A stretch of 15,129 nt of DNA from a virus (IMGVR_UViG_2545824713_000012); one strand, 5' to 3'; positions 1,331-15,129 are shown, numbered from the stretch's first letter. Notes: a model not told the origin generated them from the sequence alone. Program-made: numbers and translations.

Positions 1331-1345
1331 GCTTTTTTATACTAA
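1331..1345. other. attL core (15-bp lambda-type overlap/core GCTTTTTTATACTAA) = host/prophage junction
   Basis: Exact lambda att core; left flank (tgaagcct) is the bacterial B arm next to ybhC, right flank is the phage P' arm directly upstream of the int 3' end. Confidence 0.9.
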
Positions 1346-1418
1346 GTTGGCATTATAAAAAAGCATTGCTTATCAATTTGTTGCAACGAACAGGTCACTA
1401 TCAGTCAAAATAAAATCA
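1346..1418. promoter_or_regulatory. attL P' arm with Int arm-type sites and IHF H' site region
   Basis: Sequence GTTGGCATTATAAAAAAGCATTGCTTATCAATTTGTTGCAACGAACAGGTCACTATCAGTCAAAATAAAATCATTATTTG matches the lambda P' arm as remembered (arm-type motifs CAGGTCACTAT / CAGTCAAAAT). Confidence 0.75.
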
Positions 1419-2489
1419 TTATTTGATTTCAATTTTGTCCCACTCCCTGCCTCTGTCATCACGATACTGTGATGCCATGGTGTCCGACTTATGCCCGAGA
1501 AGATGTTGAGCAAACTTATCGCTTATCTGCTTCTCATAGAGTCTTGCAGACAAACTGCGCAACTCGTGAAAGGTAGGCGGATCCCCTTCGAAGGAAAGAC
1601 CTGATGCTTTTCGTGCGCGCATAAAATACCTTGATACTGTGCCGGATGAAAGCGGTTCGCGACGAGTAGATGCAATTATGGTTTCTCCGCCAAGAATCTC
1701 TTTGCATTTATCAAGTGTTTCCTTCATTGATATTCCGAGAGCATCAACATGCAATGCTGTTGGGATGGCAATTTTTACGCCTGTTTTGCTTTGCTCGACA
1801 TAAAGATATCCATCTACGATATCAGACCACTTCATTTCGCATAAATCACCAACTCGTTGCCCGGTAACAACAGCCAGTTCCATTGCAAGTCTGAGCCAAC
1901 ATGGTGATGATTCTGCTGCTTGATAAATTTTCAGGTATTCGTCAGCCGTAAGTCTTGATCTCCTTACCTCTGATTTTGCTGCGCGAGTGGCAGCGACAGG
2001 GTTTGTTGTTATATGGCCTTCAGCTATTGCCTCTCGGAATGCATCGCTCAGTGTTGATCTGATTAACTTGGCTGACGCCGCCTTGCCCTCGTCTATGTAT
2101 CCATTGAGCATTGCCGCAATTTCTTTTGTGGTGATGTCTTCAAGTGGAGCATCAGGCAGACCCCTCCTTATTGCTTTAATTTTGCTCATGTAATTTATGA
2201 GTGTCTTCTGCTTGATTCCTCTGCTGGCCAGGATTTTTTCGTAGCGATCAAGCCATGAATGTAACGTAACGGAATTATCACTGTTGATTCTCGCTGTCAG
2301 AGGCTTGTGTTTGTGTCCTGAAAATAACTCAATGTTGGCCTGTATGGCTTCAGTGATTGCGATTCGCCTGTCTCTGCCTAATCCAAACTCTTTACCCGTC
2401 CTTGGGTCCCTGTAGCAGTAATATCCATTGTTTCTTATATAAAGGTTAGGGGGTAAATCCCGGCGCTCATGACTTCGCCTTCTTCCCAT
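1419..2489 (-). CDS. int: Lambda-type tyrosine integrase Int
   Basis: 356-aa ORF MGRRRSHERRDLPPNLYIRNNGYYCYRDPRTGKEFGLG... matches lambda Int along its full length; 3' end abuts attL P' arm. Confidence 0.97.
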   Translation of the reverse strand: MGRRRSHERRDLPPNLYIRNNGYYCYRDPRTGKEFGLGRDRRIAITEAIQANIELFSGHKHKPLTARINSDNSVTLHSWLDRYEKILASRGIKQKTLINYMSKIKAIRRGLPDAPLEDITTKEIAAMLNGYIDEGKAASAKLIRSTLSDAFREAIAEGHITTNPVAATRAAKSEVRRSRLTADEYLKIYQAAESSPCWLRLAMELAVVTGQRVGDLCEMKWSDIVDGYLYVEQSKTGVKIAIPTALHVDALGISMKETLDKCKEILGGETIIASTRREPLSSGTVSRYFMRARKASGLSFEGDPPTFHELRSLSARLYEKQISDKFAQHLLGHKSDTMASQYRDDRGREWDKIEIK

Positions 2490-2685
2490 TTCTGATCCTC
2501 TTCAAAAGGCTACCTGTTACTGGTCGATTTAAGTCAACCTTTACCGCTGATTCGTGGAACAGATACTCTCTTCCATCCTTAACCGGAGGAGGGAATATCC
2601 TGCACTCGCGTACCCATCGACGAACTGTTTCAAGGCTTCTTGGGCGTCGCTGGCGTGCGTTCCACTCCTGAAGTGTCAAGTACAT
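2467..2685 (-). CDS. xis: Excisionase Xis
   Basis: 72-aa ORF MYLTLQEWNARQRRPRSLETVRRWVRECRIFPPPVKDGREYLF... = lambda Xis; 23-nt overlap with int start as in lambda. Confidence 0.95.
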   Translation of the reverse strand: MYLTLQEWNARQRRPRSLETVRRWVRECRIFPPPVKDGREYLFHESAVKVDLNRPVTGSLLKRIRNGKKAKS

Positions 2686-2929
2686 CGCAAAGTCTCCGCA
2701 ATTACACGCAAGAAAAAACCGCCATCAGGCGGCTTGGTGTTCTTTCAGTTCTTCAATTCGAATATTGGTTACGTCTGCATGTGCTATCTGCGCCCACAGC
2801 ATTCAGTGGTCATAGCAGTCGCTGATGTTCTCGGCTTCGATAACTCTGTTGAATGGTTCTCCATTCCATTCACCTGTGACTCGGAAGTGCATTTATCATC
2901 TCCATAAAACAAAACCCGCCGTAGCGAGT

Positions 2930-2962
2930 TCAGATAAAAGAAATCCTCGTCAGTGCGAGGAT
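2930..2962 (-). terminator. Putative intrinsic terminator for leftward transcription (7-bp stem ATCCTCG/CGAGGAT, 6-nt loop, T-rich tail on the minus strand)
   Basis: Minus strand reads CATCCTCGCACTGACGAGGAT followed by TTCTTTTATCTG; sits between the divergent AT-rich segment and xis. Confidence 0.45.
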
Positions 2963-3134
2963 GCTGTTCATTGCTGCTATACACTTTTTTGCTCTCAACG
3001 TAAGCGGTAGCCCATTCTGTTGGGTTGGTGCAGTTGCTTTTAGGAAATGCTATTTACCCCTTAAATGTCGGCTGAAAGAGCTAAAATCCATGCAAAAAAT
3101 TTACGCAATTTTGTGTATTATTGTGCAGTAAGTA

Positions 3135-3737
3135 ATGAGCTATTTTCTGCGCAAAAAATGGATGGTAAATTTGTCCGGGTCAGGAAAAATTTTATGGGCG
3201 CTAAACATGAAAAAAGATTCGTATCCTTATTTGATTTGCATGACAGTTTCAGGGCTGATCTTTATTTTCCTTTTCTTCTGGTGGCGGGCAGATATCTACA
3301 GGGTCACGTTTCTTAATCAGAGTATATCCCACTATTACATTCTGTTTAGCATGGGAATAGCTTTTCTGTTATCTCTGTTTTGGGTTAAGAAGGGGATAGT
3401 AAAACAAAGAGGCTGGAAGAGTCTGTCAGCATACCTTAAGGTTTATGCAGGGATGTGCATATTTGCAGGATTTTTTCTGATTATACCCCTTACGACACTA
3501 ACTTATTTTTTGCCTGGAGAGACATCGTCTTATGTTGCACCGTATCGGTATACTTCCGGTAGTTCAAAAAGTTGTTCTGGAGCTGAGGTGGATGACCCCG
3601 ATCTACATGAGAATATTCGCATTTGCTATCCGTATGGCAATTATGAGTACGATAATATTATCTATGTTGAAAAGAAAATTAATATATTAGGTGCGGTAGT
3701 GACATATGCACAGACCGCGCGTGATGATACTGAATGA
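3135..3737 (+). CDS. Hypothetical integral membrane protein (3 predicted TM helices plus ~75-aa Cys-containing C-terminal domain); opposite-strand moron replacing lambda ea8.5/ea22
   Basis: 200-aa ORF in AT-rich DNA; hydrophobic segments YPYLICMTVSGLIFIFLFFWW, YYILFSMGIAFLLSLFWV, YAGMCIFAGFFLIIPLTTLTYFL; basic loop KKGIVKQRGWK between TM2 and TM3. Start uncertain: in-frame ATGs at 3135, 3162 and 3207 (MKKDSY...), none with a strong SD. Confidence 0.55.
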   Translation: MSYFLRKKWMVNLSGSGKILWALNMKKDSYPYLICMTVSGLIFIFLFFWWRADIYRVTFLNQSISHYYILFSMGIAFLLSLFWVKKGIVKQRGWKSLSAYLKVYAGMCIFAGFFLIIPLTTLTYFLPGETSSYVAPYRYTSGSSKSCSGAEVDDPDLHENIRICYPYGNYEYDNIIYVEKKINILGAVVTYAQTARDDTE

Positions 3738-3781
3738 TATAGTATATAGCGGGCAAGTTTTAGTTAATTTATCGAGGTAAT

Positions 3782-3805
3782 ATAATTTACCTCGACTCGT
3801 TTGTT
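3782..3805 (+). terminator. Putative terminator hairpin downstream of the membrane-protein gene (9-bp stem TCGAGGTAA/TTACCTCGA, loop TATAAT)
   Basis: Perfect 9-bp inverted repeat 45 nt after the stop at 3737, followed by CTCGTTTGTTCT. Confidence 0.4.
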
Positions 3806-3933
3806 CTGGTATTAATATTTCGCTTTACGACCGATTTTTATCTGATGATATCATGCGGTTTTCATATACTGACTTACTGTCTTTTCTCCGTTAGCGATTT
3901 TCTCCTGCTCAGCGATGATTTTATCTTTGGCTT

Positions 3934-3951
3934 CTAGTTAATTTCGCTCAC
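3934..3951 (-). pseudogene. Remnant of lambda ea22 start (VSEIN then stop): right-hand junction of the substituted segment
   Basis: Minus strand reads GTG AGC GAA ATT AAC TAG; lambda Ea22 begins MSEIN... as I remember it; start overlaps the orf73 stop (GTGA). Confidence 0.4.
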
Positions 3952-4169
3952 TTCGAACCTCTCTGTTTACTGATAAGCTCCAGATCCTCCTGGCAACTTG
4001 CACAAGTCCGACAACCCTGAACGACCAGGCGTCTTCGTTCATCTATCGGATCGCCACACTCACAACAATGAGTGGCAGATATAGCCTGGTGGTTCAGGCG
4101 GCGCATTTTTATTGCTGTGTTGCGCTGTAATTCTTCAATTTCTGATGCTGAATCAATGATGTCTGCCAT
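3948..4169 (-). CDS. Lambda Orf73-like TraR/DksA-family C4 zinc-finger protein
   Basis: 73-aa ORF MADIIDSASEIEELQRNTAIKMRRLNHQAISATHCCECGDPIDERRRLVVQGCRTCASCQ with CxxC...CxxC motif typical of TraR/DksA; position matches lambda orf73. Confidence 0.85.
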   Translation of the reverse strand: MADIIDSASEIEELQRNTAIKMRRLNHQAISATHCCECGDPIDERRRLVVQGCRTCASCQEDLELISKQRGSK

Positions 4170-4267
4170 CTTCCATTAATCCCTGAATTGTTGGTTAATA
4201 CGCTTGAGGGTGAATGCGAATAATAAAAAAGGAGCCTGTAGCTCCCTGATGATTTTGCTTTTCATGT

Positions 4268-4579
4268 TCATCGTTCCTTAAAGACGCCGTTTAACATGCC
4301 GATTGCCAGGCTTAAATGAGTCGGTGTGAATCCCATCAGCGTTACCGTTTCGCGGTGCTTCTTCAGTACGCTACGGCAAATGTCATCGACGTTTTTATCC
4401 GGAAACTGCTGTCTGGCTTTTTTGATTTCAGAATTAGCCTGACGGGCAATGCTGCGAAGGGCGTTTTCCTGCTGAGGTGTCATTGAACAAGTCCCATGTC
4501 GGCAAGCATAAGCACACAGAATATGAAGCCCGCTGCCAGAAAAATGCATTCCGTGGTTGTCATACCTGGTCTCTCTCAT
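4268..4579 (-). CDS. Lambda orf61-region ORF, here open for 103 aa
   Basis: Start overlaps the orf63 stop by 20 nt as in lambda; N-terminal part MRETRYDNHGMHFSGSGLHILCAYACRHG... is lambda-like; the ORF runs past where I remember the lambda stop, possibly a homopolymer-length difference. Confidence 0.55.
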   Translation of the reverse strand: MRETRYDNHGMHFSGSGLHILCAYACRHGTCSMTPQQENALRSIARQANSEIKKARQQFPDKNVDDICRSVLKKHRETVTLMGFTPTHLSLAIGMLNGVFKER

Positions 4580-4751
4580 CTGCTTCTGCTTTCGCCACCA
4601 TCATTTCCAGCTTTTGTGAAAGGGATGCGGCTAACGTATGAAATTCTTCGTCTGTTTCTACTGGTATTGGCACAAACCTGACTCCAATTTGAGCGAGGCT
4701 ATGTGCCATCTCGATACTCGTTCTTAACTCAACGGGAGATGCTTTGTGCAT
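4560..4751 (-). CDS. Lambda Orf63 homolog
   Basis: 63-aa [66 protein letters not shown], same length and position as lambda orf63. Confidence 0.8.
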   Translation of the reverse strand: MHKASPVELRTSIEMAHSLAQIGVRFVPIPVETDEEFHTLAASLSQKLEMMVAKAEADERDQV

Positions 4752-4912
4752 ACAGCTCCCCGTTTATTATTTATCTCCTCAGCCAGCCGCTGTGCTTTCA
4801 GGGGATTTCGGATAACAGAAAGGCCGGGAAATACCCAGCCTCGCTTCGTAACGGAGTAGACGAAAGTGATCGTGCCTACGCGGATATTATCGTGAGGATG
4901 TTTCATCGCCAT
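4724..4912 (-). CDS. Lambda Orf60a homolog
   Basis: [58 protein letters not shown]...; the lambda-length product would start at the second Met (4906). Confidence 0.8.
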
Positions 4913-5583
4913 TGCTCCCCAAATACAAAACCAATTTCAGCCAGTGCCTCGTCCATTTTTTCGATGAACTCCGGCACCATCTCGTCAAAACTCGCCATGT
5001 AATTTTCATCCCGCTCAACCACGACATAATGCAGGCCTTCACGCTTCATTCGTGGGTCATAGTTGGCAAAGTACCAGGCATCTTTTCGCGTCACCCACAT
5101 GCTGTACTGCACCTGGGCCATGTAAGCTGACTTTATGGCCTCGAAACCACCGAGCCGGAATTTCATGAAATCCCGGGAGGTAAACGGGCATTTCAGTTCA
5201 AGGCCGTTGCCGTCACTGCATAAACCATCGGGAGAGCAGGCGGTGCGCATACTTTCGTCGCGATAGATGATCGGGGATTCAGTAACATTCACGCCGGAAG
5301 TAAACTCAAACAGGGCTCTGGCGTCGTTCTCGTACTGTTTTCCCCAGGCCAGCGCCTTAGCATTAACTTCCGGAGCCACACCGGTGCAAACCTCAGCCAG
5401 CAGGGTGTGGAAGTAGGACATTTTCATGTCAGGCCACTTCTTTCCTGAGCGGGGCTTTGCTATCACGTTGTGAACTTCTGAAGCGGTGATGACGCCGAGC
5501 CGTAATTTGTGCCATGCATCATCCCCCTGTTCGACAGCTCTCACGTCGATCCCGGTACGCTGCAGGATAATGTCCGGTGTCAT
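4903..5583 (-). CDS. exo: Lambda exonuclease (Red alpha), 5'-3' dsDNA exonuclease
   Basis: 226-aa [72 protein letters not shown]... matches lambda Exo; ATGA overlap with bet. Confidence 0.97.
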
Positions 5584-6365
5584 GCTGCCACCTTCTGCTC
5601 AGTGGCTTTCTGTTTCAGGAATCCAAGAGCTTTCACTGCTTCGGCCTGTGTCAGTTCTGACGATGCGCGAATGTCGCGGCGAAATATCTGGGAACAGAGC
5701 GGCAATAAGTCGTCATCCCATGTTTTATCCAGGGCGATCAGCAGAGTGTTAATCTCCTGCATGGTTTCATCGTTAACCGGAGTGATGTCGCGTTCCGGCT
5801 GACGTTCTGCAGTGTATGCAGTATTTTCGACAATGCGCTCGGCTTCATCCTTGTCATAGATACCAGCAAATCCGAAGGCCAGACGGGCACACTGAATCAT
5901 GGCTTTATGCCGTAACATCCGTTTGGGATGCGACTGCCACGGCCCCGTAATTTCTCTGCCTTCGCGAGTTTTGAATGGTTCGCGGCGGCATTCATCCATC
6001 CATTCGGTAACGCAGATCGGATGATTACGGTCCTTGCGGTAAATCCGGCATGTACAGGATTCATTGTCCTGCTCAAAGTCCATGCCATCAAACTGCTGGT
6101 TTTCATTGATGATGCGGGACCAGCCATCAACGCCCACCACCGGAACGATGCCGTTCTGCTTATCAGGGAAGGCGTAAATTTCTTTCGTCCACGGATTAAG
6201 GCCGTACTGGTTGGCGACGATCAACAATGCGATGAACTGCGCATCGCTGGCATCACCTTTAAATGCCGTCTGGCGAAGAGTGGTGATCAGTTCCTGTGGG
6301 TCGACAGAATCCATGCCGACACGTTCAGCCAGCTTCCCTGCCAGCGTTGCGAGTGCTGTACTCAT
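5580..6365 (-). CDS. bet: Lambda Bet (Red beta) single-strand annealing protein
   Basis: 261-aa [71 protein letters not shown]... matches lambda Bet. Confidence 0.97.
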
Positions 6366-6370
6366 CCGTT

Positions 6371-6667
6371 TTATACCTCTGAATCAATATCAACCTGGTG
6401 GCGGGCAATAGTTTCAACCATGTACCGTATGTGTTCTGCCATGCGTTCCTGAAACTCAACATCGTCATCAAACGCACGGGTAATGGCTTTTTTGCTGGCC
6501 CCGTGGCGTTGCAAATGATCGATGCATAGCGATTCAAACAGGTGCTGGGGCAGGCCTTTTTCCATGTCGTCTGCCAGTTCTGCCTCTTTCTCTTCACGGG
6601 CGATCTGCTGGTAGTGACGCGCCCAGCTCTGAGCCTCAAGACGATCCTGAATGTAATAAGCGTTCAT
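6371..6667 (-). CDS. gam: Gam (RecBCD inhibitor), short 98-aa form only
   Basis: [60 protein letters not shown]... matches lambda Gam; strong SD AGGAG 8 nt upstream; in-frame TAA 19 codons upstream with no start codon in between. Confidence 0.93.
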
Positions 6668-6743
6668 GGCTGAACTCCTGAAAATGGCTGTGAAAATATC
6701 GCCCGCGAAATGCCAGGCTGATTAGGAAAACAGGAAAGGGGGG

Positions 6744-7034
6744 TTAGTGATTCAGGCCGTTACCGCGTCCGTCGAGAAAAACTTCCACGAGCAAATCACG
6801 GGTATAAGTGCGCTCGATGCCGCGATGCAGATAAAGCCGTCCGCGTAAATTAGCTGATGCAGTCCAGGTACCATCTTTGTGTTTGACCAGCATTCCTGGC
6901 ATGACCGCACCTCGATTAACGGTCTGCGTTCCGTAATGTTGATGAACCATAAAAACTCCTGCCCGTAAGCTGGGCTGCTGAACATATAAAGACTTCTGCG
7001 CGTATTCAGGCGGTGGATGGCCGCCGGTTGTCAT
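6744..7034 (-). CDS. Hypothetical protein, first ORF of the leftward early operon (occupies the lambda N/cIII/kil position; not N-like)
   Basis: 96-aa ORF MTTGGHPPPEYAQKSLYVQQPSLRAGVFMVHQHYGTQTVNRGAVMPGMLVKHKDGTWTASANLRGRLYLHRGIERTYTRDLLVEVFLDGRGNGLNH; no family recognised; no arginine-rich N-terminal motif; its stop coincides with the point where lambda-like gam-upstream sequence begins. Confidence 0.5.
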   Translation of the reverse strand: MTTGGHPPPEYAQKSLYVQQPSLRAGVFMVHQHYGTQTVNRGAVMPGMLVKHKDGTWTASANLRGRLYLHRGIERTYTRDLLVEVFLDGRGNGLNH

Positions 7035-7227
7035 AACTAAGCCGCCTCGTTGAAGCGACTAAGGTATGAAATGTTGAGTTAATTTCAGCTGGTCACACCG
7101 ACGTTCACGCGTCCGTTTCACCCCTCGCACTCCCCGAAGCCTGCTGAAATTCAAACTGCGGATCTAAGCGGTCATCGCAACGGTGAATCAGGTAGTTGCC
7201 GTATCGTTGTGTTGTTGCGATGAACTT

Positions 7228-7256
7228 ATTTAAAACTATAGTTGTTTTATCGTCAA
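7228..7256 (-). promoter_or_regulatory. PL-like early leftward promoter (-35 TTGACG, 17-nt spacer, -10 TTAAAT) overlapping operator repeats
   Basis: Minus strand GTTGTTGACGATAAAACAACTATAGTTTTAAAT is nearly colinear with the PR sequence GTTGTTGACTAAAAACAACCATAGTTTTAATCT at 8280-8312. Confidence 0.5.
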
Positions 7257-7390
7257 CAACAAAAGTTGTTTTATTGGTTGTTTTAGATATAACTGGTTGT
7301 ATTTAGGATGGATTTATTTTGTGACTTGAATCGCATAGCGATAACTGAAGCGAGGTTATGGTGGTTTTTTTAACGGTGTGTGTGATGAGG

Positions 7391-7423
7391 GGAGGGCAAA
7401 AGAAAACCCGGCACGGTGACCGG
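7391..7423 (-). terminator. Putative intrinsic terminator downstream of the repressor gene
   Basis: Minus strand CCCGG-tcaccgtg-CCGGG followed by TTTTCTTTTG; about 120 nt past the repressor stop. Confidence 0.45.
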
Positions 7424-7545
7424 GATTCTTACGCCGTTAGGTAAAGATATTATTGCGGTGGCTTAATATTACTACCTAGAGCAAAGATAGGAATTAGTTC
7501 TTTACTGAATGAGCACAATGCCCAGTTGATAATTTTTAATTGGTA

Positions 7546-8235
7546 CTACCCATGCTTCCTATATGTCTGCGGCATGCTCCCAATAACCTTACCGAAGATG
7601 AACACCCGGTTCATCTCGTCTTTCTCGATCGGGTCCCACGGTGAGTAGCTTTTGTTATCAGAGATGACCAGCAGCTTATTCTTCATCATTTGCAGGCGCT
7701 TTACATGGGCTGTGTCGTCGTACAGAAACGCATAGATACCATCACCGTCGAAAGATTTAACTGTGATATCAACGAACAGCAGATCACCTGGTTCGATCGT
7801 TCCTGACATGCTGTCACCACGCACGTTAATGATGCGGATATTTTCCGCCTTCCTACCATCGAACATGTGACGAGCATCGTCAAACGAGTACTCAACCGAG
7901 CGTAGAACTTCTACAAACTCACGGTTGATGACTCCCGGCCCAGCACTGACTTCTATATCAAGAACGTCAATCTTGAAGTATTTGGAATGGCTGACAGTTG
8001 ATTGTATTGGTTGCACTGTACTGTCTGACATATTTCCAACGCCAGAAGATAACCATTCTGCGCGCACACCCAAAGCGTTCGCGATCTCCACGATTTTAGT
8101 TGTTTGATTAGCTTTCCCTGTTTCGATTTTCTGAATAGCAGCCTGGCTAACCCCGACCAAATCCCCAAGCGCCTTTTGTGTAAGGCCTCGCGCTAATCTG
8201 GCTTCTTTAAGTCTTTCTGAGAGTGTTGTTTTCAT
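7546..8235 (-). CDS. CI-like prophage repressor (N-terminal HTH_XRE, C-terminal S24 LexA-type autopeptidase)
   Basis: MKTTLSERLKEARLARGLTQKALGDLVGVSQAAIQKIETGK... HTH; Ala-Gly site in VSAGPG; catalytic Ser in RGDSMSG and Lys in HVKRL. I prefer the ATG at 8235 (229 aa) over the ORF-track start at 8301 because the extra 22 codons would overlap the PR -35/operator. Confidence 0.85.
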   Translation of the reverse strand: MKTTLSERLKEARLARGLTQKALGDLVGVSQAAIQKIETGKANQTTKIVEIANALGVRAEWLSSGVGNMSDSTVQPIQSTVSHSKYFKIDVLDIEVSAGPGVINREFVEVLRSVEYSFDDARHMFDGRKAENIRIINVRGDSMSGTIEPGDLLFVDITVKSFDGDGIYAFLYDDTAHVKRLQMMKNKLLVISDNKSYSPWDPIEKDEMNRVFIFGKVIGSMPQTYRKHG

Positions 8236-8277
8236 AGTCCAAATGTACAACCAAGGTTTTATTCCATCAAACGAAAA

Positions 8278-8300
8278 TGGTTGTTGACTAAAAACAACCA
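8278..8300. promoter_or_regulatory. Candidate OR operator: 23-bp palindrome TGGTTGTT-N7-AACAACCA overlapping the PR -35
   Basis: Perfect 8-bp inverted arms; related half-sites ACAACCA/TGGTTGT recur at 8247-8253, 8324-8339 and in the PL region (7275-7281, 7294-7300). Confidence 0.5.
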
Positions 8301-8312
8301 TAGTTTTAATCT
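8284..8312 (+). promoter_or_regulatory. PR-like early rightward promoter (-35 TTGACT, 17-nt spacer, -10 TAATCT)
   Basis: Consensus-like sigma70 elements about 28 nt upstream of the cro-like ATG, which has SD GGAGG at 8330-8334. Confidence 0.6.
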
Positions 8313-8339
8313 TGATTCAAATTAACCACGGAGGTTGTT

Positions 8340-8570
8340 ATGAACCCAGCTATCAAAACAGCGATCAATATCGTTGGTTCACAAAAGAAACTGGGCGCTG
8401 CTTGCGAAGTTTCACAGCAGGCCGTCTATAAGTGGCTTCACAACAAAGCAAAGGTATCCCCTGAACATGTCGGCAGCATTGTTACGGCTACTGGTGGAGT
8501 AGTGAAGGCATACCAGATTCGCCCGGATCTTCCGAAGTTGTTTCCACACACCGAAAAGAACGCAGCTTAA
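8340..8570 (+). CDS. Cro-like HTH regulator (YdaS family)
   Basis: 76-aa ORF MNPAIKTAINIVGSQKKLGAACEVSQQAVYKWLHNKAKVSPEHVGSIVTATGGVVKAYQIRPDLPKLF; HTH plus the C-terminal RPD motif I associate with Rac YdaS; divergent from the repressor across the PR/operator region. Confidence 0.8.
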   Translation: MNPAIKTAINIVGSQKKLGAACEVSQQAVYKWLHNKAKVSPEHVGSIVTATGGVVKAYQIRPDLPKLFPHTEKNAA

Positions 8571-8582
8571 ATTTCCATTTCA

Positions 8583-8595
8583 CGCTCTTTAACAA
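8583..8595 (+). promoter_or_regulatory. boxA-like element CGCTCTTTAACAA (rrn-consensus type) in the cro-ydaT intergenic region
   Basis: 12/13 match to rrn boxA TGCTCTTTAACAA as remembered; no convincing boxB hairpin seen after it. Confidence 0.35.
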
Positions 8596-8639
8596 TAAGC
8601 AATCAACTTAACAGTCAATTCAAACTAAAGGAGTCAATT

Positions 8640-9179
8640 ATGCAACCACTTACATACCAACAGACTAGCGGATTTAGCCCGACTGCGGTGATAAATCGTT
8701 CTCAAACAAAACAGGTGCCAGGCCACGAAAAAATCCGTGATGCCGTCCGCGCCTGGTCGGCTGTAGATAATCAGGATGTCGTTGCCACACTCATTGTGAA
8801 TGAGTATCGGGAGCAGGGCGGCGGCACCATCGATTTCCCTGATGATGTCAGCCGTGCACGCCAGAAGCTGTTCCGCTTCCTCGATAACAAATTCGATTCT
8901 GAAAAATACCGAAATAATGTGCGTGAACTGACCCCGGCAATTCTGGCGGTACTACCGCTGGAATATCGCGGTTACCTGGTTGAGCAGGATAGCTTCATGG
9001 CTAGGTTGGCTGAAATGGAAAAGGAACTCAGTGAGGCAAAACAGGCTGTCATTCTCAACGCACCACGCCACCAGAAACTGAAGGAAATTAGTGAAGGTAT
9101 TGTGTCGATGTTTCGTGTGGACCCAGATCTGGCTGGTCCATTGATGGCGATGGTTACTACCATGCTGGGGGCGATATGA
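8640..9179 (+). CDS. YdaT-family protein (Rac prophage YdaT-like, in the cII position)
   Basis: 179-aa ORF; segments LIVNEYREQGGGTIDFP and LTPAILAVLPLEYRGYL resemble Rac YdaT (EEYLRQGGGELPL, KLIPAILAILPRELRHR) from memory; strong SD AAGGAG upstream. Confidence 0.75.
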   Translation: MQPLTYQQTSGFSPTAVINRSQTKQVPGHEKIRDAVRAWSAVDNQDVVATLIVNEYREQGGGTIDFPDDVSRARQKLFRFLDNKFDSEKYRNNVRELTPAILAVLPLEYRGYLVEQDSFMARLAEMEKELSEAKQAVILNAPRHQKLKEISEGIVSMFRVDPDLAGPLMAMVTTMLGAI

Positions 9180-9265
9180 CAGGTTCAGAAATGGCGAAAG
9201 CCGGTCTGCTGGAACAGAACCGACTTTCAGGTGCAAATCGTAACACACTCATTGCGGGAGGAATT

Positions 9266-10195
9266 ATGGCAAACACTGCTGAGATATTCAATTTTCCAGT
9301 GCCGGATGCGGCACAAAAGGAGCCGCGCGTGGCAGATCTCGATGATGGTTATACGCGCATTGCAAATGAGTTGCTGGAAGCTGTGATGCTGGCCGGATTA
9401 ACACAGCACCAGCTTCTGGTCTTCCTGGCTGTCATGCGCAAAACATATGGCTTTAATAAAAAACTGGATTGGGTGAGCAACGAGCAACTTTCCGAGTTGA
9501 CCGGGATATTGCCGCACAAGTGTTCTGCTGCAAAAAGTGTTCTGGTAAAGCGTGGGATTTTTATTCAGAGTGGGCGGAATATCGGCATTAATAATGTGGT
9601 CAGTGAATGGTCAACATTACCCGAATCAGGTAAGAAAAATAAAGTTTACCTGAAAGAGGTAAATTTACCTGAATCAGGTAAGAAAAGTTTACCCAAATCA
9701 GGTAAAGGCGTTTACCCGAATCAGGTAAACACAAAAGACAAACTAACAAAAGACAATATAAAACCTTTTTCGTCCGAGAATTCTGGCGAATCCTCTGACC
9801 AGCCAGAAAACGACTTTCCTTTGGAGAAACTGGATGCTGCAATTCAGAGCGGCAGCAAGTGGGGGACAGCAGAAGACCTGACCGCCGCAGAGTGGATGTT
9901 TAACATGGTGAAGACCATCGCGCCCTCAGCCAGAAAACCGAATTTTGCAGGGTGGGCTAACGATATCCGCCTGATGCGTGAACGTGACGGACGTAACCAC
10001 CGCGACATGTGCGTGCTGTTCCGCTGGGCATGCCAGGACAACTTCTGGTCCGGTAACGTGCTGAGTCCGGCCAAACTCCGCGACAAGTGGACCCAACTCG
10101 AAATCAACCGTAACAAGCAACAGGCTGGCGTGACAACCGGAAAATCAAAACTCGACCTGACAAACACTGACTGGATTTACGGGGTGGATTTATGA
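9266..10195 (+). CDS. O: Lambda O-type replication initiator
   Basis: MANTAEIFNFPVPDAAQKEPRVADLDDGYTRIANELLEA... aligns with lambda O N-terminus (MTNTAKILNFGRG...VADLDDGYARLSNMLLEA); C-terminal third is nearly identical to lambda O; SD GGGAGG before the ATG at 9266; the ORF-track start at 9176 is an upstream in-frame extension. Confidence 0.93.
   Translation: MANTAEIFNFPVPDAAQKEPRVADLDDGYTRIANELLEAVMLAGLTQHQLLVFLAVMRKTYGFNKKLDWVSNEQLSELTGILPHKCSAAKSVLVKRGIFIQSGRNIGINNVVSEWSTLPESGKKNKVYLKEVNLPESGKKSLPKSGKGVYPNQVNTKDKLTKDNIKPFSSENSGESSDQPENDFPLEKLDAAIQSGSKWGTAEDLTAAEWMFNMVKTIAPSARKPNFAGWANDIRLMRERDGRNHRDMCVLFRWACQDNFWSGNVLSPAKLRDKWTQLEINRNKQQAGVTTGKSKLDLTNTDWIYGVDL
9617..9773. repeat. Replication origin inside O: five 17-19-bp palindromic iterons (TTTACC-N7-GGTAAA) followed by an A/T-rich tract
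   Basis: Iterons at 9617-9633, 9645-9663, 9664-9682, 9688-9706, 9711-9729 (e.g. TTTACCCGAATCAGGTAAA), then ACACAAAAGACAAACTAACAAAAGACAATATAAAACCTTTTT; same organisation as lambda ori but different iteron sequence. Confidence 0.75.
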
Positions 10196-10893
10196 AAAAC
10201 ATCGCCGCACAGATGGTTAACTTTGACCGTGAGCAGATGCGCCGGATCGCCAACAACATGCCGGAACAGTACGACGAAAAGCCGCAGGTACAGCAGGTAG
10301 CGCAGATCATCAACGGTGTGTTCAGCCAGTTACTGGCAACTTTCCCGGCGAGCCTGGCTAACCGTGACCAGAATGAACTGAACGAAATCCGCCGCCAGTG
10401 GGTTCTGGCTTTCTGGGAAAACGGGATCACCACAATGGAACAGGTTAACGCTGGAATGCGCGTAGCCCGTCGGCAGAATCGACCATTCCTGCCATCACCC
10501 GGGCAGTTTGTCGCCTGGTGCCGGGAAGAAGCATCCGTTACCGCCGGGCTGCCAAACGCCAGCGAGCTGGTTGATATGGTTTACGAGTATTGCCGGAAGC
10601 GCGGGCTGTATCCGGATGCAGAGTCTTATCCGTGGAAATCAAACGCGCACTACTGGCTGGTTACCAACCTGTATCAGAACATGCGGGCCAATGCGTTGAC
10701 TGACGCGGAATTACGGCGCAAGGCTGCCGATGAACTGTCCTGTATGACCGCACGAATTAACCGTGGTGAGGCTATACCTGAACCAGTAAAACAACTTCCT
10801 GTCATGGGCGGTAGACCTCTAAATCGTGCACAGGCTCTGGCGAAGATCGCAGAAATCAAAGCTAAGTTTGGGCTGAAAGGAGCAAGGGTATGA
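10192..10893 (+). CDS. P: Lambda P replication protein (DnaB helicase loader)
   Basis: 233-aa ORF MKNIAAQMVNFDREQMRRIANNMPEQYDEKPQVQQVAQIINGVFSQLLATFPASLANRDQNE... near-identical to lambda P; ATGA overlap with O. Confidence 0.95.
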   Translation: MKNIAAQMVNFDREQMRRIANNMPEQYDEKPQVQQVAQIINGVFSQLLATFPASLANRDQNELNEIRRQWVLAFWENGITTMEQVNAGMRVARRQNRPFLPSPGQFVAWCREEASVTAGLPNASELVDMVYEYCRKRGLYPDAESYPWKSNAHYWLVTNLYQNMRANALTDAELRRKAADELSCMTARINRGEAIPEPVKQLPVMGGRPLNRAQALAKIAEIKAKFGLKGARV

Positions 10894-11192
10894 CGGGCAA
10901 AGAGGCAATTATTCATTACCTGGGGACTCATAAGAAATTCTGTGCGCAGGACGTTGCCGCGGTAACAGGCGCAACGGTAACCAGCATAAATCAGGCTGCG
11001 GCTAAAATGGCGCGGGCAGGAATCCTGGTCGTTGATGGTAAGGTCTGGCGAACGGTGTATTATCGGTTCGCTACCAGAGAAGAATGGGAAGGAAAGGTGA
11101 GCACGAATTTGATTTTTAAGGAGTGTCGCCAGAGTGCCGCGATGAAACGGGTATTGAGGGTATATAAAAGAACATCAATGGGTACACAATGA
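10890..11192 (+). CDS. ren: Ren-like protein with divergent C-terminus
   Basis: MTGKEAIIHYLGTHKKFCAQDVAAVTGATVTSINQAAAKMARAGILVVDGKVWRTVYYRFATREEWEGK... matches lambda Ren up to ...AAMKRVL, then ends RVYKRTSMGTQ instead of the lambda tail. Confidence 0.85.
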   Translation: MTGKEAIIHYLGTHKKFCAQDVAAVTGATVTSINQAAAKMARAGILVVDGKVWRTVYYRFATREEWEGKVSTNLIFKECRQSAAMKRVLRVYKRTSMGTQ

Positions 11193-11259
11193 TGAAACAG
11201 GTGAGTTGAGTTCAAACTGTAGTACAATTCTCTCCAGTTTGAACAGGAAAGAATATGCT

Positions 11260-11592
11260 ATGAATCCTTATATTTATCTTGGTGGTGCAATACTTGCAGA
11301 GGTCATTGGTACAACCTTAATGAAGTTTTCAGAAGGTTTTACACGGTTATGGCCATCTGTTGGTACAATTATTTGTTATTGTGCATCATTCTGGTTATTA
11401 GCTCAGACGCTGGCTTATATTCCTACAGGGATTGCTTATGCTATCTGGTCAGGAGTCGGTATTGTCCTGATTAGCTTACTATCATGGGGATTTTTCGGCC
11501 AACGGTTGGACCTGCCAGCCATTATAGGCATGATGTTGATTTGTGCCGGTGTGTTGGTTATTAATTTATTGTCACGAAGCACACCACATTAA
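11260..11592 (+). CDS. emrE: EmrE small multidrug resistance (SMR) efflux transporter
   Basis: 110-aa product MNPYIYLGGAILAEVIGTTLMKFSEGFTRLWPSVGTIICYCASFWLLAQTLAYIPTGIAYAIWSGVGIVLISLLSWGFFGQRLDLPAIIGMMLICAGVL... matches E. coli EmrE; the ORF-track start at 11206 is an upstream extension; SD AGGA before 11260. Confidence 0.9.
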   Translation: MNPYIYLGGAILAEVIGTTLMKFSEGFTRLWPSVGTIICYCASFWLLAQTLAYIPTGIAYAIWSGVGIVLISLLSWGFFGQRLDLPAIIGMMLICAGVLVINLLSRSTPH

Positions 11593-11622
11593 AAATAATT
11601 TGTTTTTAAACGACTAAAATAT

Positions 11623-11660
11623 GGAGGCTCGTATATTTATATGGGCCTCGTTTTATGCTT
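11623..11660 (+). terminator. Possible imperfect terminator hairpin after emrE
   Basis: GAGGC...GCCTC stem with a long AT loop followed by GTTTTATGCTTTTTG; weak. Confidence 0.3.
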
Positions 11661-11847
11661 TTTGTTAATGTCTTTAGTTTTTATTCATTCTTTTGTGCTT
11701 TCAAGATTATGGTGTAAGAAAATTGCAATACGATTATTGTTGTATATTCAAGATAATGTGACCTTAATTGTCTTTTTAAATAAAAATTAAACAAAAATCA
11801 TATCTCACCACTAAGGTTTATAAAAGCATACTTTAGCAGGTGTCACC

Positions 11848-13374
11848 ATGAAAAAAGCCATAGCATATATGCGATTTTCATCACCAGGTCAGATGTCTGG
11901 TGATTCATTAAACCGCCAGAGAAGGCTTATTACTGAATGGCTAAAGGTAAATAGTGATTATTACCTTGATACCGTAACGTATGAAGATTTGGGGTTAAGC
12001 GCATTCAATGGAAAGCATGCACAATCAGGAGCTTTTTCGGAATTTTTAGATGCTATAGAACATGGTTATATATTGCCAGGGACTACATTGTTAGTTGAAA
12101 GTCTGGACAGACTTTCAAGAGAAAAAGTCGGTGAAGCGATTGAGCGTCTGAAATTGATTTTGAATCACGGTATTGATGTTATAACTCTTTGCGATAATAC
12201 AGTCTATAATATTGACTCATTGAATGAGCCATATTCATTAATAAAAGCCATACTTATAGCACAAAGGGCAAATGAAGAAAGCGAGATAAAGTCAAGTCGG
12301 GTTAAATTATCATGGAAGAAAAAACGGCAGGATGCACTGGAGTCAGGCACGATTATGACGGCGTCTTGTCCGAGATGGCTCTCATTGGATGACAAAAGAA
12401 CGGCTTTTGTTCCAGACCCCGACAGGGTGAAAACTATTGAGCTAATTTTTAAACTCAGGATGGAAAGGCGCTCATTGAATGCAATAGCCAAGTATTTAAA
12501 TGATCATGCTGTAAAGAATTTCTCAGGAAAAGAAAGTGCATGGGGACCTTCTGTAATTGAAAAATTATTAGCGAATAAAGCTCTGATAGGTATATGCGTA
12601 CCTTCATATCGTGCAAGAGGTAAAGGAATAAGTGAAATCGCTGGCTATTATCCCAGAGTCATATCAGATGATTTGTTTTACGCTGTGCAGGAAATTCGGT
12701 TGGCACCTTTTGGTATTAGCAATAGTAGCAAAAATCCTATGTTGATAAATCTACTTCGAACAGTTATGAAGTGCGAGGCTTGTGGTAATACCATGATTGT
12801 TCATGCGGTATCTGGAAGTTTGCATGGCTATTATGTTTGTCCGATGAGAAGACTGCATCGATGTGACAGGCCATCAATAAAGAGAGATTTGGTTGATTAT
12901 AATATCATTAATGAGTTGCTTTTTAATTGTAGTAAAATCCAACCAGTTGAAAACAAGAAAGATGCTAATGAAACTTTAGAGTTGAAAATTATTGAGCTCC
13001 AGATGAAAATTAATAATTTAATTGCTGCATTATCTGTTGCGCCTGAAGTTACCGCTATAGCAGAAAAAATCAGAGTATTAGATAAGGAATTACGAAGGGC
13101 TTCTGTATCATTAAAAACTTTGAAGAGTAAAGCGGTGAGTTCACTTGGTGATTTTCATGCTATTGACTTAACCAGTAAAAATGGGCGAGAGCTATGTCGT
13201 ACACTTGCCTATAAAACATTCGAAAAAATCATAATCAATACAGATAATAAAACCTGTGATATCTATTTTATGAATGGCATTGTTTTTAAACACTATCCTT
13301 TAATGAAAACAATATCTGCCCAGCAGGCGATAAGTACTCTCAAATATATGGTTGATGGTGAGGTTTATTTTTGA
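11848..13374 (+). CDS. ybcK: Large serine recombinase (YbcK family; N-terminal resolvase/invertase catalytic domain, recombinase and zinc-ribbon domains)
   Basis: 508-aa ORF MKKAIAYMRFSSPGQMSGDSLNRQRRLITEWLK... with catalytic Ser in the YMRFSS motif; matches DLP12 YbcK as remembered; SD AGGTG upstream; AT-rich. Confidence 0.85.
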   Translation: MKKAIAYMRFSSPGQMSGDSLNRQRRLITEWLKVNSDYYLDTVTYEDLGLSAFNGKHAQSGAFSEFLDAIEHGYILPGTTLLVESLDRLSREKVGEAIERLKLILNHGIDVITLCDNTVYNIDSLNEPYSLIKAILIAQRANEESEIKSSRVKLSWKKKRQDALESGTIMTASCPRWLSLDDKRTAFVPDPDRVKTIELIFKLRMERRSLNAIAKYLNDHAVKNFSGKESAWGPSVIEKLLANKALIGICVPSYRARGKGISEIAGYYPRVISDDLFYAVQEIRLAPFGISNSSKNPMLINLLRTVMKCEACGNTMIVHAVSGSLHGYYVCPMRRLHRCDRPSIKRDLVDYNIINELLFNCSKIQPVENKKDANETLELKIIELQMKINNLIAALSVAPEVTAIAEKIRVLDKELRRASVSLKTLKSKAVSSLGDFHAIDLTSKNGRELCRTLAYKTFEKIIINTDNKTCDIYFMNGIVFKHYPLMKTISAQQAISTLKYMVDGEVYF

Positions 13375-13398
13375 GTAATAATCACTTTTTCAACCGTG

Positions 13399-13476
13399 CT
13401 ATAGTAAGAAAGTTAGGTAAGTACAATAAAATTATCTATCCTGAACGAAGCGTCCTGAGCTATGGTTTTACTATAG
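13399..13476. repeat. Inverted repeat pair CTATAGTAA(G/A)AA ... TTTTACTATAG flanking about 60 bp, between ybcK and the next ORF
   Basis: 9-bp perfect (12-bp imperfect) inverted repeats at 13399-13407 and 13468-13476; the right copy lies just upstream of the SD (AGGGA) of the 107-aa ORF. Confidence 0.4.
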
Positions 13477-13485
13477 GGACTGCCA

Positions 13486-13809
13486 ATGGATGCTGGCGTT
13501 CTCGTTCTAGCAGTTCAACAATCCCCAATCACAAAACAATTCACTGATAACGAACTTTGCACACTCGCCTGGTTATGGCGAGCAGGGAATGTGATGTTAA
13601 TTACCTACCAGAACGTTACTCCTCTTCTTCAGGTTGCGGAGCATCGTGAAGCTGGTCGCTTCACTTCTATCGAGCAAGAATATCCCCAGATACTCAACAG
13701 AGCGCGAGCAATCCTCGTCCGAGAAACGGCACATGTAAAACTTCAGCCGTGGCAGGATGATAAGTGGAGTCGAGTATTGCCGCATTTACCTCAGAATCTG
13801 TTTCAATAA
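13486..13809 (+). CDS. Hypothetical 107-aa protein (no family recognised)
   Basis: ORF MDAGVLVLAVQQSPITKQFTDNELCTLAWLWRAGNVMLITYQNVTPLLQVAEHREAGRFTSIEQEYPQILNRARAILVRETAHVKLQPWQDDKWSRVLPHLPQNLFQ with SD AGGGA 6 nt upstream. Confidence 0.5.
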   Translation: MDAGVLVLAVQQSPITKQFTDNELCTLAWLWRAGNVMLITYQNVTPLLQVAEHREAGRFTSIEQEYPQILNRARAILVRETAHVKLQPWQDDKWSRVLPHLPQNLFQ

Positions 13810-13983
13810 AGGCGCTAGTTAGTAAGGCTTCCGTCATTCTGCGATGACGGAAGTGCGGGCTGCGTACGGGAGAGCAATTGCATGAATAATATAAATATTC
13901 CGCTCACTCCATATAGCGATTTCTGATACAAACTTATCTATTGTGGTAAAATTATAGAAACAAACTTATAGCGTACTAACCAT

Positions 13984-14679
13984 ATGGACAATATTAATAA
14001 ACACGGGCTCTCAAGAAGAATACCTGAGACAATAAAACGTCAGATAAGGCAAAGGTGCGGCTTTGGCTGTGTAATTTGTGGATTTGGATTTTATGATTAT
14101 GAGCATTTTAAACCTGACTTCGTTGATGCCAAAGTACATGATCCGAATGGAATGACACTTCTTTGCTCCCAATGCAATCAAAAAAGAGCTCGTGGTAGAC
14201 TTTCAGCACAGACAGTGGAAATAGCTGACAGAAATCCCAAGTGCTTACAGGCTGGTTTTGCAAATGAAATGTTTGATTTTCATAATGAGCCTATAACAGT
14301 AAAATTTGCAGGAGTGACGTTTCATAACTGTCAAAATTTGATTGTAGTCAACGAACAACCCATTCTTTCTGTGAAACCTTCACCCATACCACATGGACCG
14401 ATGCTTTTATCAGGAATTTTCTGTAATTCTATTGGTAAGGAGACTTTACTGATAGATGAAAATGAATGGAAAGCTAAATCAGACAATTGGGATGTGGAGT
14501 GTACCGGCCCGCGTATAACAATACGACGTGGGCCAGGAGAGTTTGCCCTCGTTCTAAAAATGGAACCTCCAACAGGATTGATTGTTGAGCGTCTTGATAT
14601 GTTGTATGAAGGGGTCAGGATGAAAGGAGATAAAGATCTGCTGGAAGTTTTGAACCGCCCCGGGAATCCTGGAGACTAA
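13984..14679 (+). CDS. HNH-motif nuclease-domain protein with uncharacterised C-terminal domain; 3' end disrupted by IS insertion (last 9 codons are IS-derived)
   Basis: N-terminal CGFGCVIC...YDYEHFKP...[15 protein letters not shown] fits the HNH (beta-beta-alpha-Me, two CxxC) pattern; ORF is in frame into the IS terminal repeat starting at 14651, so the native C-terminus is missing; no SD seen. Confidence 0.6.
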
Positions 14680-14704
14680 ACTTCCTGAGAAAGAGGTAAA
14701 CAGG

Positions 14705-15031
14705 ATGACTAAAAATACTCGTTTTTCCCCCGAAGTCCGTCAACGGGCAGTCCGTATGGTTCTGGAAAGTCAGAGCGAATATGACTCACAATGGGCGACA
14801 ATTTGTTCCATTGCTCCAAAGATTGGCTGTACGCCGGAGACTCTGCGTGTCTGGGTTCGCCAGCATGAGCGGGATACCGGGGGCGGTGATGGAGGGCTCA
14901 CCACCGCTGAACGTCAGCGTCTGAAAGAGCTGGAACGTGAAAATCGTGAACTGCGCCGCAGTAACGATATCCTTCGCCAGGCTTCCGCTTATTTTGCGAA
15001 GGCGGAGTTCGACCGCCTCTGGAAAAAATGA
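14705..15031 (+). CDS. IS3-family transposase OrfA (HTH DNA-binding subunit)
   Basis: 108-aa [111 protein letters not shown]. Confidence 0.9.
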
Positions 15032-15129
15032 TGCCACTGCTGGATAAGCTGCGTGAGCAGTACGGGGTCGGACCGCTATGCAGCGAACTGCATATTGCCC
15101 CGTCAACGTATTACCACTGTCAGCAACAG
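15027..15129 (+). CDS. IS3-family transposase OrfB (DDE catalytic subunit), 5' partial within window
   Basis: -1 frame relative to orfA; [34 protein letters not shown]...; overlaps the orfA stop across an A-rich slippery stretch (GGAAAAAATGATG). Confidence 0.8.

Follow-up and report, generated by a model that had tools for sequence, protein, structure and literature searches.

The DNA analysed here (the window) is a 15,129-nucleotide stretch of a viral genome (IMGVR_UViG_2545824713_000012) belonging to a lambda-like prophage that sits at att-lambda beside ybhC. Between xis and orf73 it contains a cassette with a single substantial gene, which codes for a predicted three-helix inner-membrane protein on the strand opposite to the pL operon and for which exclusion of superinfecting phages is the function that we tentatively favour. 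The features that carry this argument are given below with their positions in the window.

2963–3935, no strand assigned: substitution cassette, 38.1% GC (blastn against lambda and GC count).
3070–3827, plus strand: core moron unit of control region, gene and hairpin (blastn against the E. coli P2-like prophage cassette L016).
3111–3127, plus strand: direct repeat TTGTGTA-TTA-TTGTGCA (alignment with the P2-like cassette; annotation of phage 434).
3135–3206, plus strand: 24-codon in-frame upstream extension of the gene, probably untranslated (stops in seven other loci; promoter inside).
3143–3171, plus strand: predicted sigma-70 promoter with −35 TTTTCT, 17-nt spacer and extended −10 TGgTAAATT (position weight matrix (PWM) scan).
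3207–3737, plus strand: gene for the 176-aa protein, predicted to be an inner-membrane protein, stop codon included (open reading frame list; homologue starts; AlphaFold2; dN/dS).
3219–3509, plus strand: predicted transmembrane (TM) region, residues 5–101 (AlphaFold2).
3510–3734, plus strand: predicted periplasmic OB-like domain, residues 102–176 (AlphaFold2).
3573–3575 and 3624–3626, plus strand: codons of the invariant Cys123 and Cys140 (family alignment).
3772–3795, plus strand: hairpin with a 9-bp stem followed by CUCGUUUGUU, likely intrinsic terminator (terminator scan).

The edges of the cassette were defined by a blastn comparison of the window with lambda 27000–36000. Lambda 27724–29355 corresponds to window 1331–2962 (98.7%) and lambda 30380–33193 to window 3936–6750 (97.8%), and 2963–3935 (973 bp) therefore stands in place of ea8.5 and of ea22 beyond codon 5. 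A preliminary description, made from the sequence of the window, had proposed an AT-rich substitution in the ea8.5/ea22 slot that leaves a five-codon ea22 remnant, and each element of this proposal was recovered: the lambda match ends at 2962 and restarts at 3936, the GC content of the insert (38.1% versus 45.2% and 50.2% in the flanks) marks a foreign base composition of the kind by which morons are recognised, and the minus strand from 3951 to 3934 reads VSEIN followed by a stop codon where lambda Ea22 reads VSEINSQALREAAEQ. The left edge coincides exactly with the tL4 hairpin of the pL operon, which is labelled t-L4 at the corresponding position of the 434 int-xis record M60848.

Phages 434, mEp332 and 2B8 carry the same cassette at the same position with 98.6–99.7% nucleotide identity; among 50,697 phage records, family members of the gene were found in these three only. 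Lambda has ea8.5 and ea22 here, and PhiR68_2, 1H12 and phi24B have other content, with flanks that are 97–99% identical, which is the presence and absence among close relatives at a sharp boundary that characterises a moron. The xis–orf73 slot varies among lambdoid phages in general, the other occupants all lying on the pL strand and this cassette alone opposite to it. The cassette was further located in 916 of the 5,426 complete E. coli genomes (about one in six), in every case on the chromosome. The gene was also recovered by tblastn, at 100% protein identity, from a 3.5-kb contig (JARKOR010000073.1) of a “Candidatus Nanosynbacter” Saccharibacteria metagenome-assembled genome (L021); this copy is almost certainly a contamination of the genome bin by an E. 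coli prophage.

The sole substantial open reading frame (ORF) of the cassette extends from 3135 to 3737 on the plus strand, opposite to pL, and comprises 200 codons. Its homologues (166–189 aa, down to 27% identity) all start at Met25 of this ORF, and in-frame stop codons are found directly 5′ of the Met25 equivalent in all of the seven other loci examined. The true start is therefore ATG 3207, and whereas the opposite-strand ORF of 200 aa in the preliminary description exists, the protein has 176 aa. A transcript start near 3178, as predicted from the promoter at 3143–3171, would again exclude the upstream ATGs at 3135 and 3171; the RefSeq protein WP_001348592 (200 aa from ATG 3135) and gene CPT_434_36 of the 434 record OL657226 (“putative membrane protein”, 188 aa from ATG 3171) are both over-extended. 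A hidden Markov model profile search over 1.84 billion cluster representatives gave 61 matches, of which the full-length ones have approximately 170 aa and the same architecture, the others being fragments and one repeat protein of 3,074 aa. When the window gene was compared with three P2-borne copies, the ratio of nonsynonymous to synonymous substitution rates (dN/dS) was 0.10–0.16 for the whole gene, 0.05–0.10 for the C-terminal domain and 0.12–0.22 for the TM part. The gene is real and under purifying selection, which is strongest on the periplasmic domain.

The gene appears to be a transcription unit of its own. Nucleotide homology to the E. coli P2-like prophage cassette (L016) is confined to 3070–3827 (76% identity), which indicates the limits of the mobile unit. 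Five phage-borne loci have in common a direct repeat, TTGTGYA-N3-TTGTGCA, and a promoter-like block; the repeat at 3111–3127 may be the site of a regulator, possibly of a host regulator. The predicted promoter at 3143–3171 is the best upstream candidate (top 0.1% of window positions in our own PWM scan) and its key bases are invariant in the five loci; a stricter consensus promoter scan did not list it. At the other end of the unit, the hairpin at 3772–3795 has a folding free energy of −12.9 kcal/mol (z −3.26), and none of 200 shuffled sequences folds as well; its U-tract is weak, and L016 has a weaker hairpin at the same place. The preliminary description had rightly noted a hairpin 3′ of the stop codon, 10 nt too far to the right (3782–3805). 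A single opposite-strand gene in an accessory slot, with a foreign GC content, a promoter candidate and a hairpin, agrees with the moron architecture proposed there.

According to the AlphaFold2 model of the full-length protein (mean predicted local distance difference test (pLDDT) score 86.9), helices span residues 5–29, 38–61 and 69–101 and are followed by a five-stranded beta domain (residues 105–171), which reaches a pLDDT of 91.4 when modelled alone; hydropathy gives the same layout. The loop between helices 2 and 3 contains five Lys/Arg and no Asp/Glu residues and the C-terminal domain is net acidic (six Lys/Arg versus 12 Asp/Glu), so that the positive-inside rule predicts a cytoplasmic N-terminus and a periplasmic beta domain. 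The C-terminal domain is predicted to be a 75-aa OB-like beta-barrel in the periplasm. Cys123 and Cys140 are invariant in all 41 family members and are located at the base of the beta2–beta3 hairpin of the model, where they probably form a periplasmic disulfide clamp. The three TM helices and the Cys-containing periplasmic C-terminal domain of the preliminary description thereby find support in hydropathy, charge counts and structure prediction. Because the periplasmic domain is the most constrained part and contains the two invariant cysteines, the conservation points to an interaction in the periplasm. A class I holin, which needs an N-out/C-in topology, a short charged C-terminus and a lysis cassette, was considered and rejected given the predicted N-in/C-out topology and the 75-aa beta domain; the gene lies outside the lysis cassette here, and one distant member is found 5′ of a holin gene.

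Searches of Pfam, NCBIfam, PADLOC and PDB sequence profiles returned nothing meaningful for the 176-aa protein or for the 41 members, and a search of BFVD returned nothing. The preliminary description had recognised no family either, and the sole family match is PHROG 1416 (“unknown function”, E 7e-51), whose entire 90-position profile aligns to residues 113–200 of the 200-aa ORF, that is, to TM3 and the periplasmic domain. A 112-aa allele in E. coli P2-like prophages (P0159, P0161), present in more than 1,000 contigs, likewise consists of TM3 and the periplasmic domain only; the allele is perhaps a common form that arose by truncation or decay, and may explain the C-terminal-only coverage of PHROG 1416.

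The family is small and limited to Enterobacterales. Within prophages it occupies three kinds of slots, namely the lambdoid exo–xis region (xis–orf73), the P2 gpA–gpQ interval and the lambdoid Q–holin interval, and all of the E. coli and Salmonella copies that were examined occupy accessory slots of prophages. In the P2-like prophages (E. coli, Salmonella, Klebsiella), homologues of 56–78% identity are located between gpQ (portal) and gpA (replication), an interval that corresponds to the old/tin defence hotspot (Rousset et al, 2022; PMC9122126). Table S5B of that study lists a System #4 without Pfam assignment, described as “3 TM”, which with 470 occurrences is the fourth commonest item of the hotspot. 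An alignment of the System #4 representative with the window protein covers 168 residues at 51% identity (E 2e-56), and the two share the CSGA and ICYP motifs. Homology, the single gene and the three TM helices all place the window gene in System #4; System #4 sits in the P2-like gpA–gpQ interval and is so far a catalogue entry, whereas the window gene lies in the lambdoid exo–xis region. The Q–holin slot, in a lambdoid prophage, holds a distant member that shares 27% identity with the window protein. The cassette is accordingly not as novel as the preliminary description implied, being known 434 sequence with a family already catalogued by Rousset et al (2022). Since the 434 sequence, PHROG 1416 and System #4 are public, the novelty would be in the function and not in the existence of the gene.

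Neighbouring genes differ between loci. In a P2-like prophage of Klebsiella michiganensis (L042 2281–5623), the member stands beside genes for a 790-aa protein with a weak AAA_16 Pfam match and a 279-aa protein, a pair that may represent a STAND/Avs-like defence system sharing the locus. Genes for proteins of 81 and 119 aa lie 5′ of the homologue in some Salmonella P2-like prophages and were rejected as partners, as they are absent from two other loci (L006, L016).

Among known exclusion systems, one that is similar in outline is SieA of P22, a three-helix inner-membrane protein of 162–164 aa for which a block of DNA injection has been shown (PMC10883804). Besides a similar size (162–164 versus 176 aa), three predicted TM helices and the inner membrane (a predicted location for the window protein), SieA and the window protein have in common that each is encoded by a lone prophage gene oriented against its neighbours and that both are restricted to Enterobacterales (PMC10883804; P22 map); SieA has its own promoter, and the window gene has a candidate for one. 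The conserved motif of SieA, however, is predicted to be cytoplasmic whereas the conserved part of the window family is the predicted periplasmic beta-barrel, and SieA genes are confined, in P22-like prophages, to the interval from gene 16 to gene 9 whereas the window gene lies between xis/tL4 and orf73. Membership in the SieA family was rejected on these differences in location, on an hhalign probability of 0.2% and on the absence of the motif FxRYPxEAxxFNK from the 176-aa sequence. For HK97 gp15, in turn, a protein of the inner membrane, exclusion of HK97 has been reported (Cumby et al, 2012, as cited in PMC10883804). It resembles the window gene as a lambdoid moron with its own terminator (a likely one in the window) and an inner-membrane product (a predicted one in the window), but comprises 62 aa and is encoded in the tail gene cluster (HK97 map), and homology was rejected (hhalign probability 0.9%). 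GiPD474, a defence protein from Gifsy, was set aside as an unrelated ATPase. In terms of fold, the nearest systems include small membrane-anchored OB-like domains with no known function (DUF1093/YxeA, 3npp; BcR97A, 2k5q; DUF2500/YhhM, 3q6c).

Taken together, we favour, with somewhat less than even confidence, an envelope protein made by the prophage that excludes superinfecting phages at the stage of DNA entry; a role in envelope fitness or immunity ranks next, followed by abortive infection and phage development. In the mechanism that we propose, an autonomous moron of promoter, gene and terminator would have been inserted against the direction of pL into the variable xis–orf73 part. Expression from the prophage can be expected because pL is repressed in the lysogen and the gene has a promoter-like element of its own. 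The three TM helices would hold the OB-like barrel on the periplasmic face, with the N-terminus in the cytoplasm, and the barrel would engage either a conserved host component of the inner membrane or periplasm that is needed for genome entry or the injection conduit itself, thereby keeping incoming phage DNA out of the cytoplasm. The opposite-strand autonomy, the foreign GC content and the capture into three prophage slots fit a moron expressed in the lysogen, and the homologues in the P2 defence hotspot together with the distant member in the Q–holin slot lend support to a role in exclusion or defence. By analogy with SieA, for which interference with genome entry has been shown, and with gp15, for which it has been reported, an inner-membrane anchor with a conserved periplasmic domain is plausibly well placed to act against genome entry. 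Judging by the strong purifying selection on the periplasmic domain and by the stable host orthologues, any target would more likely be a conserved component of the host than a phage protein that evolves fast.

A number of observations weigh against exclusion, and several of them speak for a lysogenic-conversion or envelope fitness factor without a defence role that was captured from Enterobacterales chromosomes (for example in stress tolerance, in immunity to bacteriocins or contact-dependent toxins or in the modulation of transporters), an alternative that we regard as possible but rather unlikely. Seven Enterobacter species carry the gene at a syntenic chromosomal locus, where the orthologues are vertically inherited and 68–97% identical to each other, a range similar to that of neighbouring non-essential genes. 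Further members reside in chromosomal islets of Citrobacter (between rstA and rstB), Klebsiella, Cedecea and Pseudescherichia, on 25 Pantoea plasmid records (those listed being mostly megaplasmids of about 0.5 Mb), and in Serratia directly 3′ of ptsG (L045 4333–6510), and a chromosomal member of Klebsiella (L009 5882–8543) adjoins a gene for a Bgl-type permease of the phosphotransferase system (PTS). Exclusion loses some support because these members are stable non-phage genes. PADLOC-DB 2.0 gave no match to any defence model at E ≤ 1, profile comparison revealed no similarity of the family to SieA, SieB or gp15, and the strong purifying selection, which an envelope factor would equally show, is unlike the arms-race signature frequent in phage-binding proteins. 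The P2 hotspot also holds cargo other than defence genes, its top item being the StbA/Plasmid_stab_B pair (PMC9122126), and the tested-systems table of the same study contains neither the sequence nor the motifs of the family. An N-terminally truncated allele, the 112-aa form, is common in E. coli P2-like prophages, and no functional study came to light when the literature was searched for accessions, phage names and topics; the 434 genome announcement (PMC9119081) does not discuss the gene. For the envelope fitness factor in turn, it is unfavourable that the examined E. coli and Salmonella copies are all in prophage slots, including the best-documented defence hotspot, and that no toxin or partner gene is conserved next to the gene; a role in exclusion, moreover, is compatible with chromosomal homologues. 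In classical heteroimmunity tests lambda plates on 434 lysogens, and lambda itself is therefore probably not a target.

SieB and RexB, membrane proteins of the immunity-left region of lambda that the lysogen produces, act through abortive infection. The window protein might similarly respond to an infecting phage by damaging or depolarising the inner membrane so that the cell dies before phage release, as proposed for these two and for the TM effectors of many defence systems. The gene lies opposite to the pL operon, as does lambda sieB, and TM proteins of the P2 and P4 hotspots are usually read as suicide effectors (PMC9122126). We nevertheless consider abortive infection improbable: the window gene is single and without a sensor partner in most contexts, the folded periplasmic domain of its product is better conserved than the TM helices, homology to SieB was rejected (hhalign probability 0.1%), and stable chromosomal orthologues speak against a hair-trigger toxin. 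Equally small is the weight that we give to a role in the development of the phage itself, in which the gene, or an antisense transcript, would be expressed from a promoter under CII activation while lysogeny is being established, thereby tuning exo–xis/pL expression or stopping re-infection by sibling virions. The 434 GenBank record labels TTGTN6TTGT (3111–3124) a CII site, the equivalent region of P22 contains PaI, an antisense promoter that C1 activates, and exo–xis genes have been reported to affect lysogenisation and induction (PMC3824215, PMC4195576). The motif TTGYN6TTGY, however, occurs at chance frequency (four found versus 3.9 expected), reads TTGT where the genuine pI site at 2698–2711 has TTGC, and is kept in the cassettes of P2-like phages, which are without CII, so that we judged the reading as a CII site weak. 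In lambda pRE the CII site is separated from the −10 element by roughly 13 nt, whereas the motif in the window is 41 nt away from the best −10 element. Family members are, in addition, found outside phages.

Returning to exclusion at entry, a stronger form of it would make the window protein the founder of a novel family of anti-phage proteins that act singly at the envelope and are carried by lambdoid and P2-like prophages. Their conserved, disulfide-clamped OB-like domain would shut an entry route in the host inner membrane, possibly a PTS permease, and the family would be unrelated in sequence and fold to SieA, SieB, gp15, Imm and Ltp; we regard this form as doubtful. PTS permeases are the route of DNA entry for some siphophages. 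Adjacency to PTS genes was seen in two of about nine independent chromosomal contexts, which makes it a weak lead towards these permeases, and we retained it as a lead and not as evidence of a target.

If exclusion holds, part of the phage resistance seen in a large share of E. coli and Salmonella isolates would be due to an unstudied gene of the classic phage 434, with relevance to phage therapy and typing. A function would also be assigned to an item of the P2 defence hotspot that is among its most frequent unexplained ones, and entry blockers would gain a structurally new type. Otherwise, the gene would represent a widespread envelope protein of lysogenic conversion, as little studied as its host orthologues in Enterobacter and Pantoea. 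The unit is tractable in either case, as its length is about 760 bp, control signals included, and as isogenic 434 and mEp332 phages exist.

The remaining features around the cassette are as follows.

2943–2962, minus strand: tL4 terminator hairpin of the pL operon, lambda-homologous (terminator scan).
2961–3131, plus strand: 56-aa ORF given as a gene in the 434 and mEp332 records, probably spurious (annotations; P2-like homology; PGAP).
3934–3951, minus strand: ea22 remnant of five codons (GTG-SEIN-stop), overlapping the orf73 stop codon (translations of window and lambda).
3948–4169, minus strand: lambda orf73, coding for a zinc-finger protein of the TraR/DksA type and the first gene where the pL operon resumes (Pfam PF01258; PHROG 54).

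The 56-aa ORF was rejected as a second gene of the cassette, given that it is not conserved and that P2-like homology begins only at 3070; it is not called by the Prokaryotic Genome Annotation Pipeline (PGAP) and has no PHROG, Pfam or PADLOC match. At both edges of the cassette, short minus-strand segments resemble the displaced genes: 2967–3008 encodes 14 aa similar to lambda Ea8.5 residues 43–56, and 3848–3931 encodes a coiled-coil-like fragment, LEAKDKIIAEQEKI, that resembles Ea22-like proteins. Both are too short for significance and are a hint that the moron may have displaced diverged ea8.5 and ea22 alleles. On the right, orf73 directly adjoins the cassette, with its stop codon overlapping the start of the ea22 remnant; direct reprogramming of host transcription has been reported for lambda Orf73 (PMC9239242).

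The record containing the Serratia member (L045; NZ_CP042515.1) is filed as plasmid pE28_003, a linear molecule of 67 kb that carries the housekeeping genes pabC, mltG, tmk, holB, ptsG and lpoB, and looks like a chromosomal contig deposited as a plasmid. Within the window, the N gene is not annotated in a gap of approximately 600 bp (6950–7546). To the right of gam and kil (6750–15129), the prophage is no longer lambda- or 434-like and contains genes for an S24-type repressor and a Cro-like regulator, a YdaT-domain gene and then O/P/ren, as well as an emrE-like small multidrug resistance (SMR) transporter gene (about 11260–11592), a ybcK-type recombinase gene and nin-region genes resembling those of DLP12.

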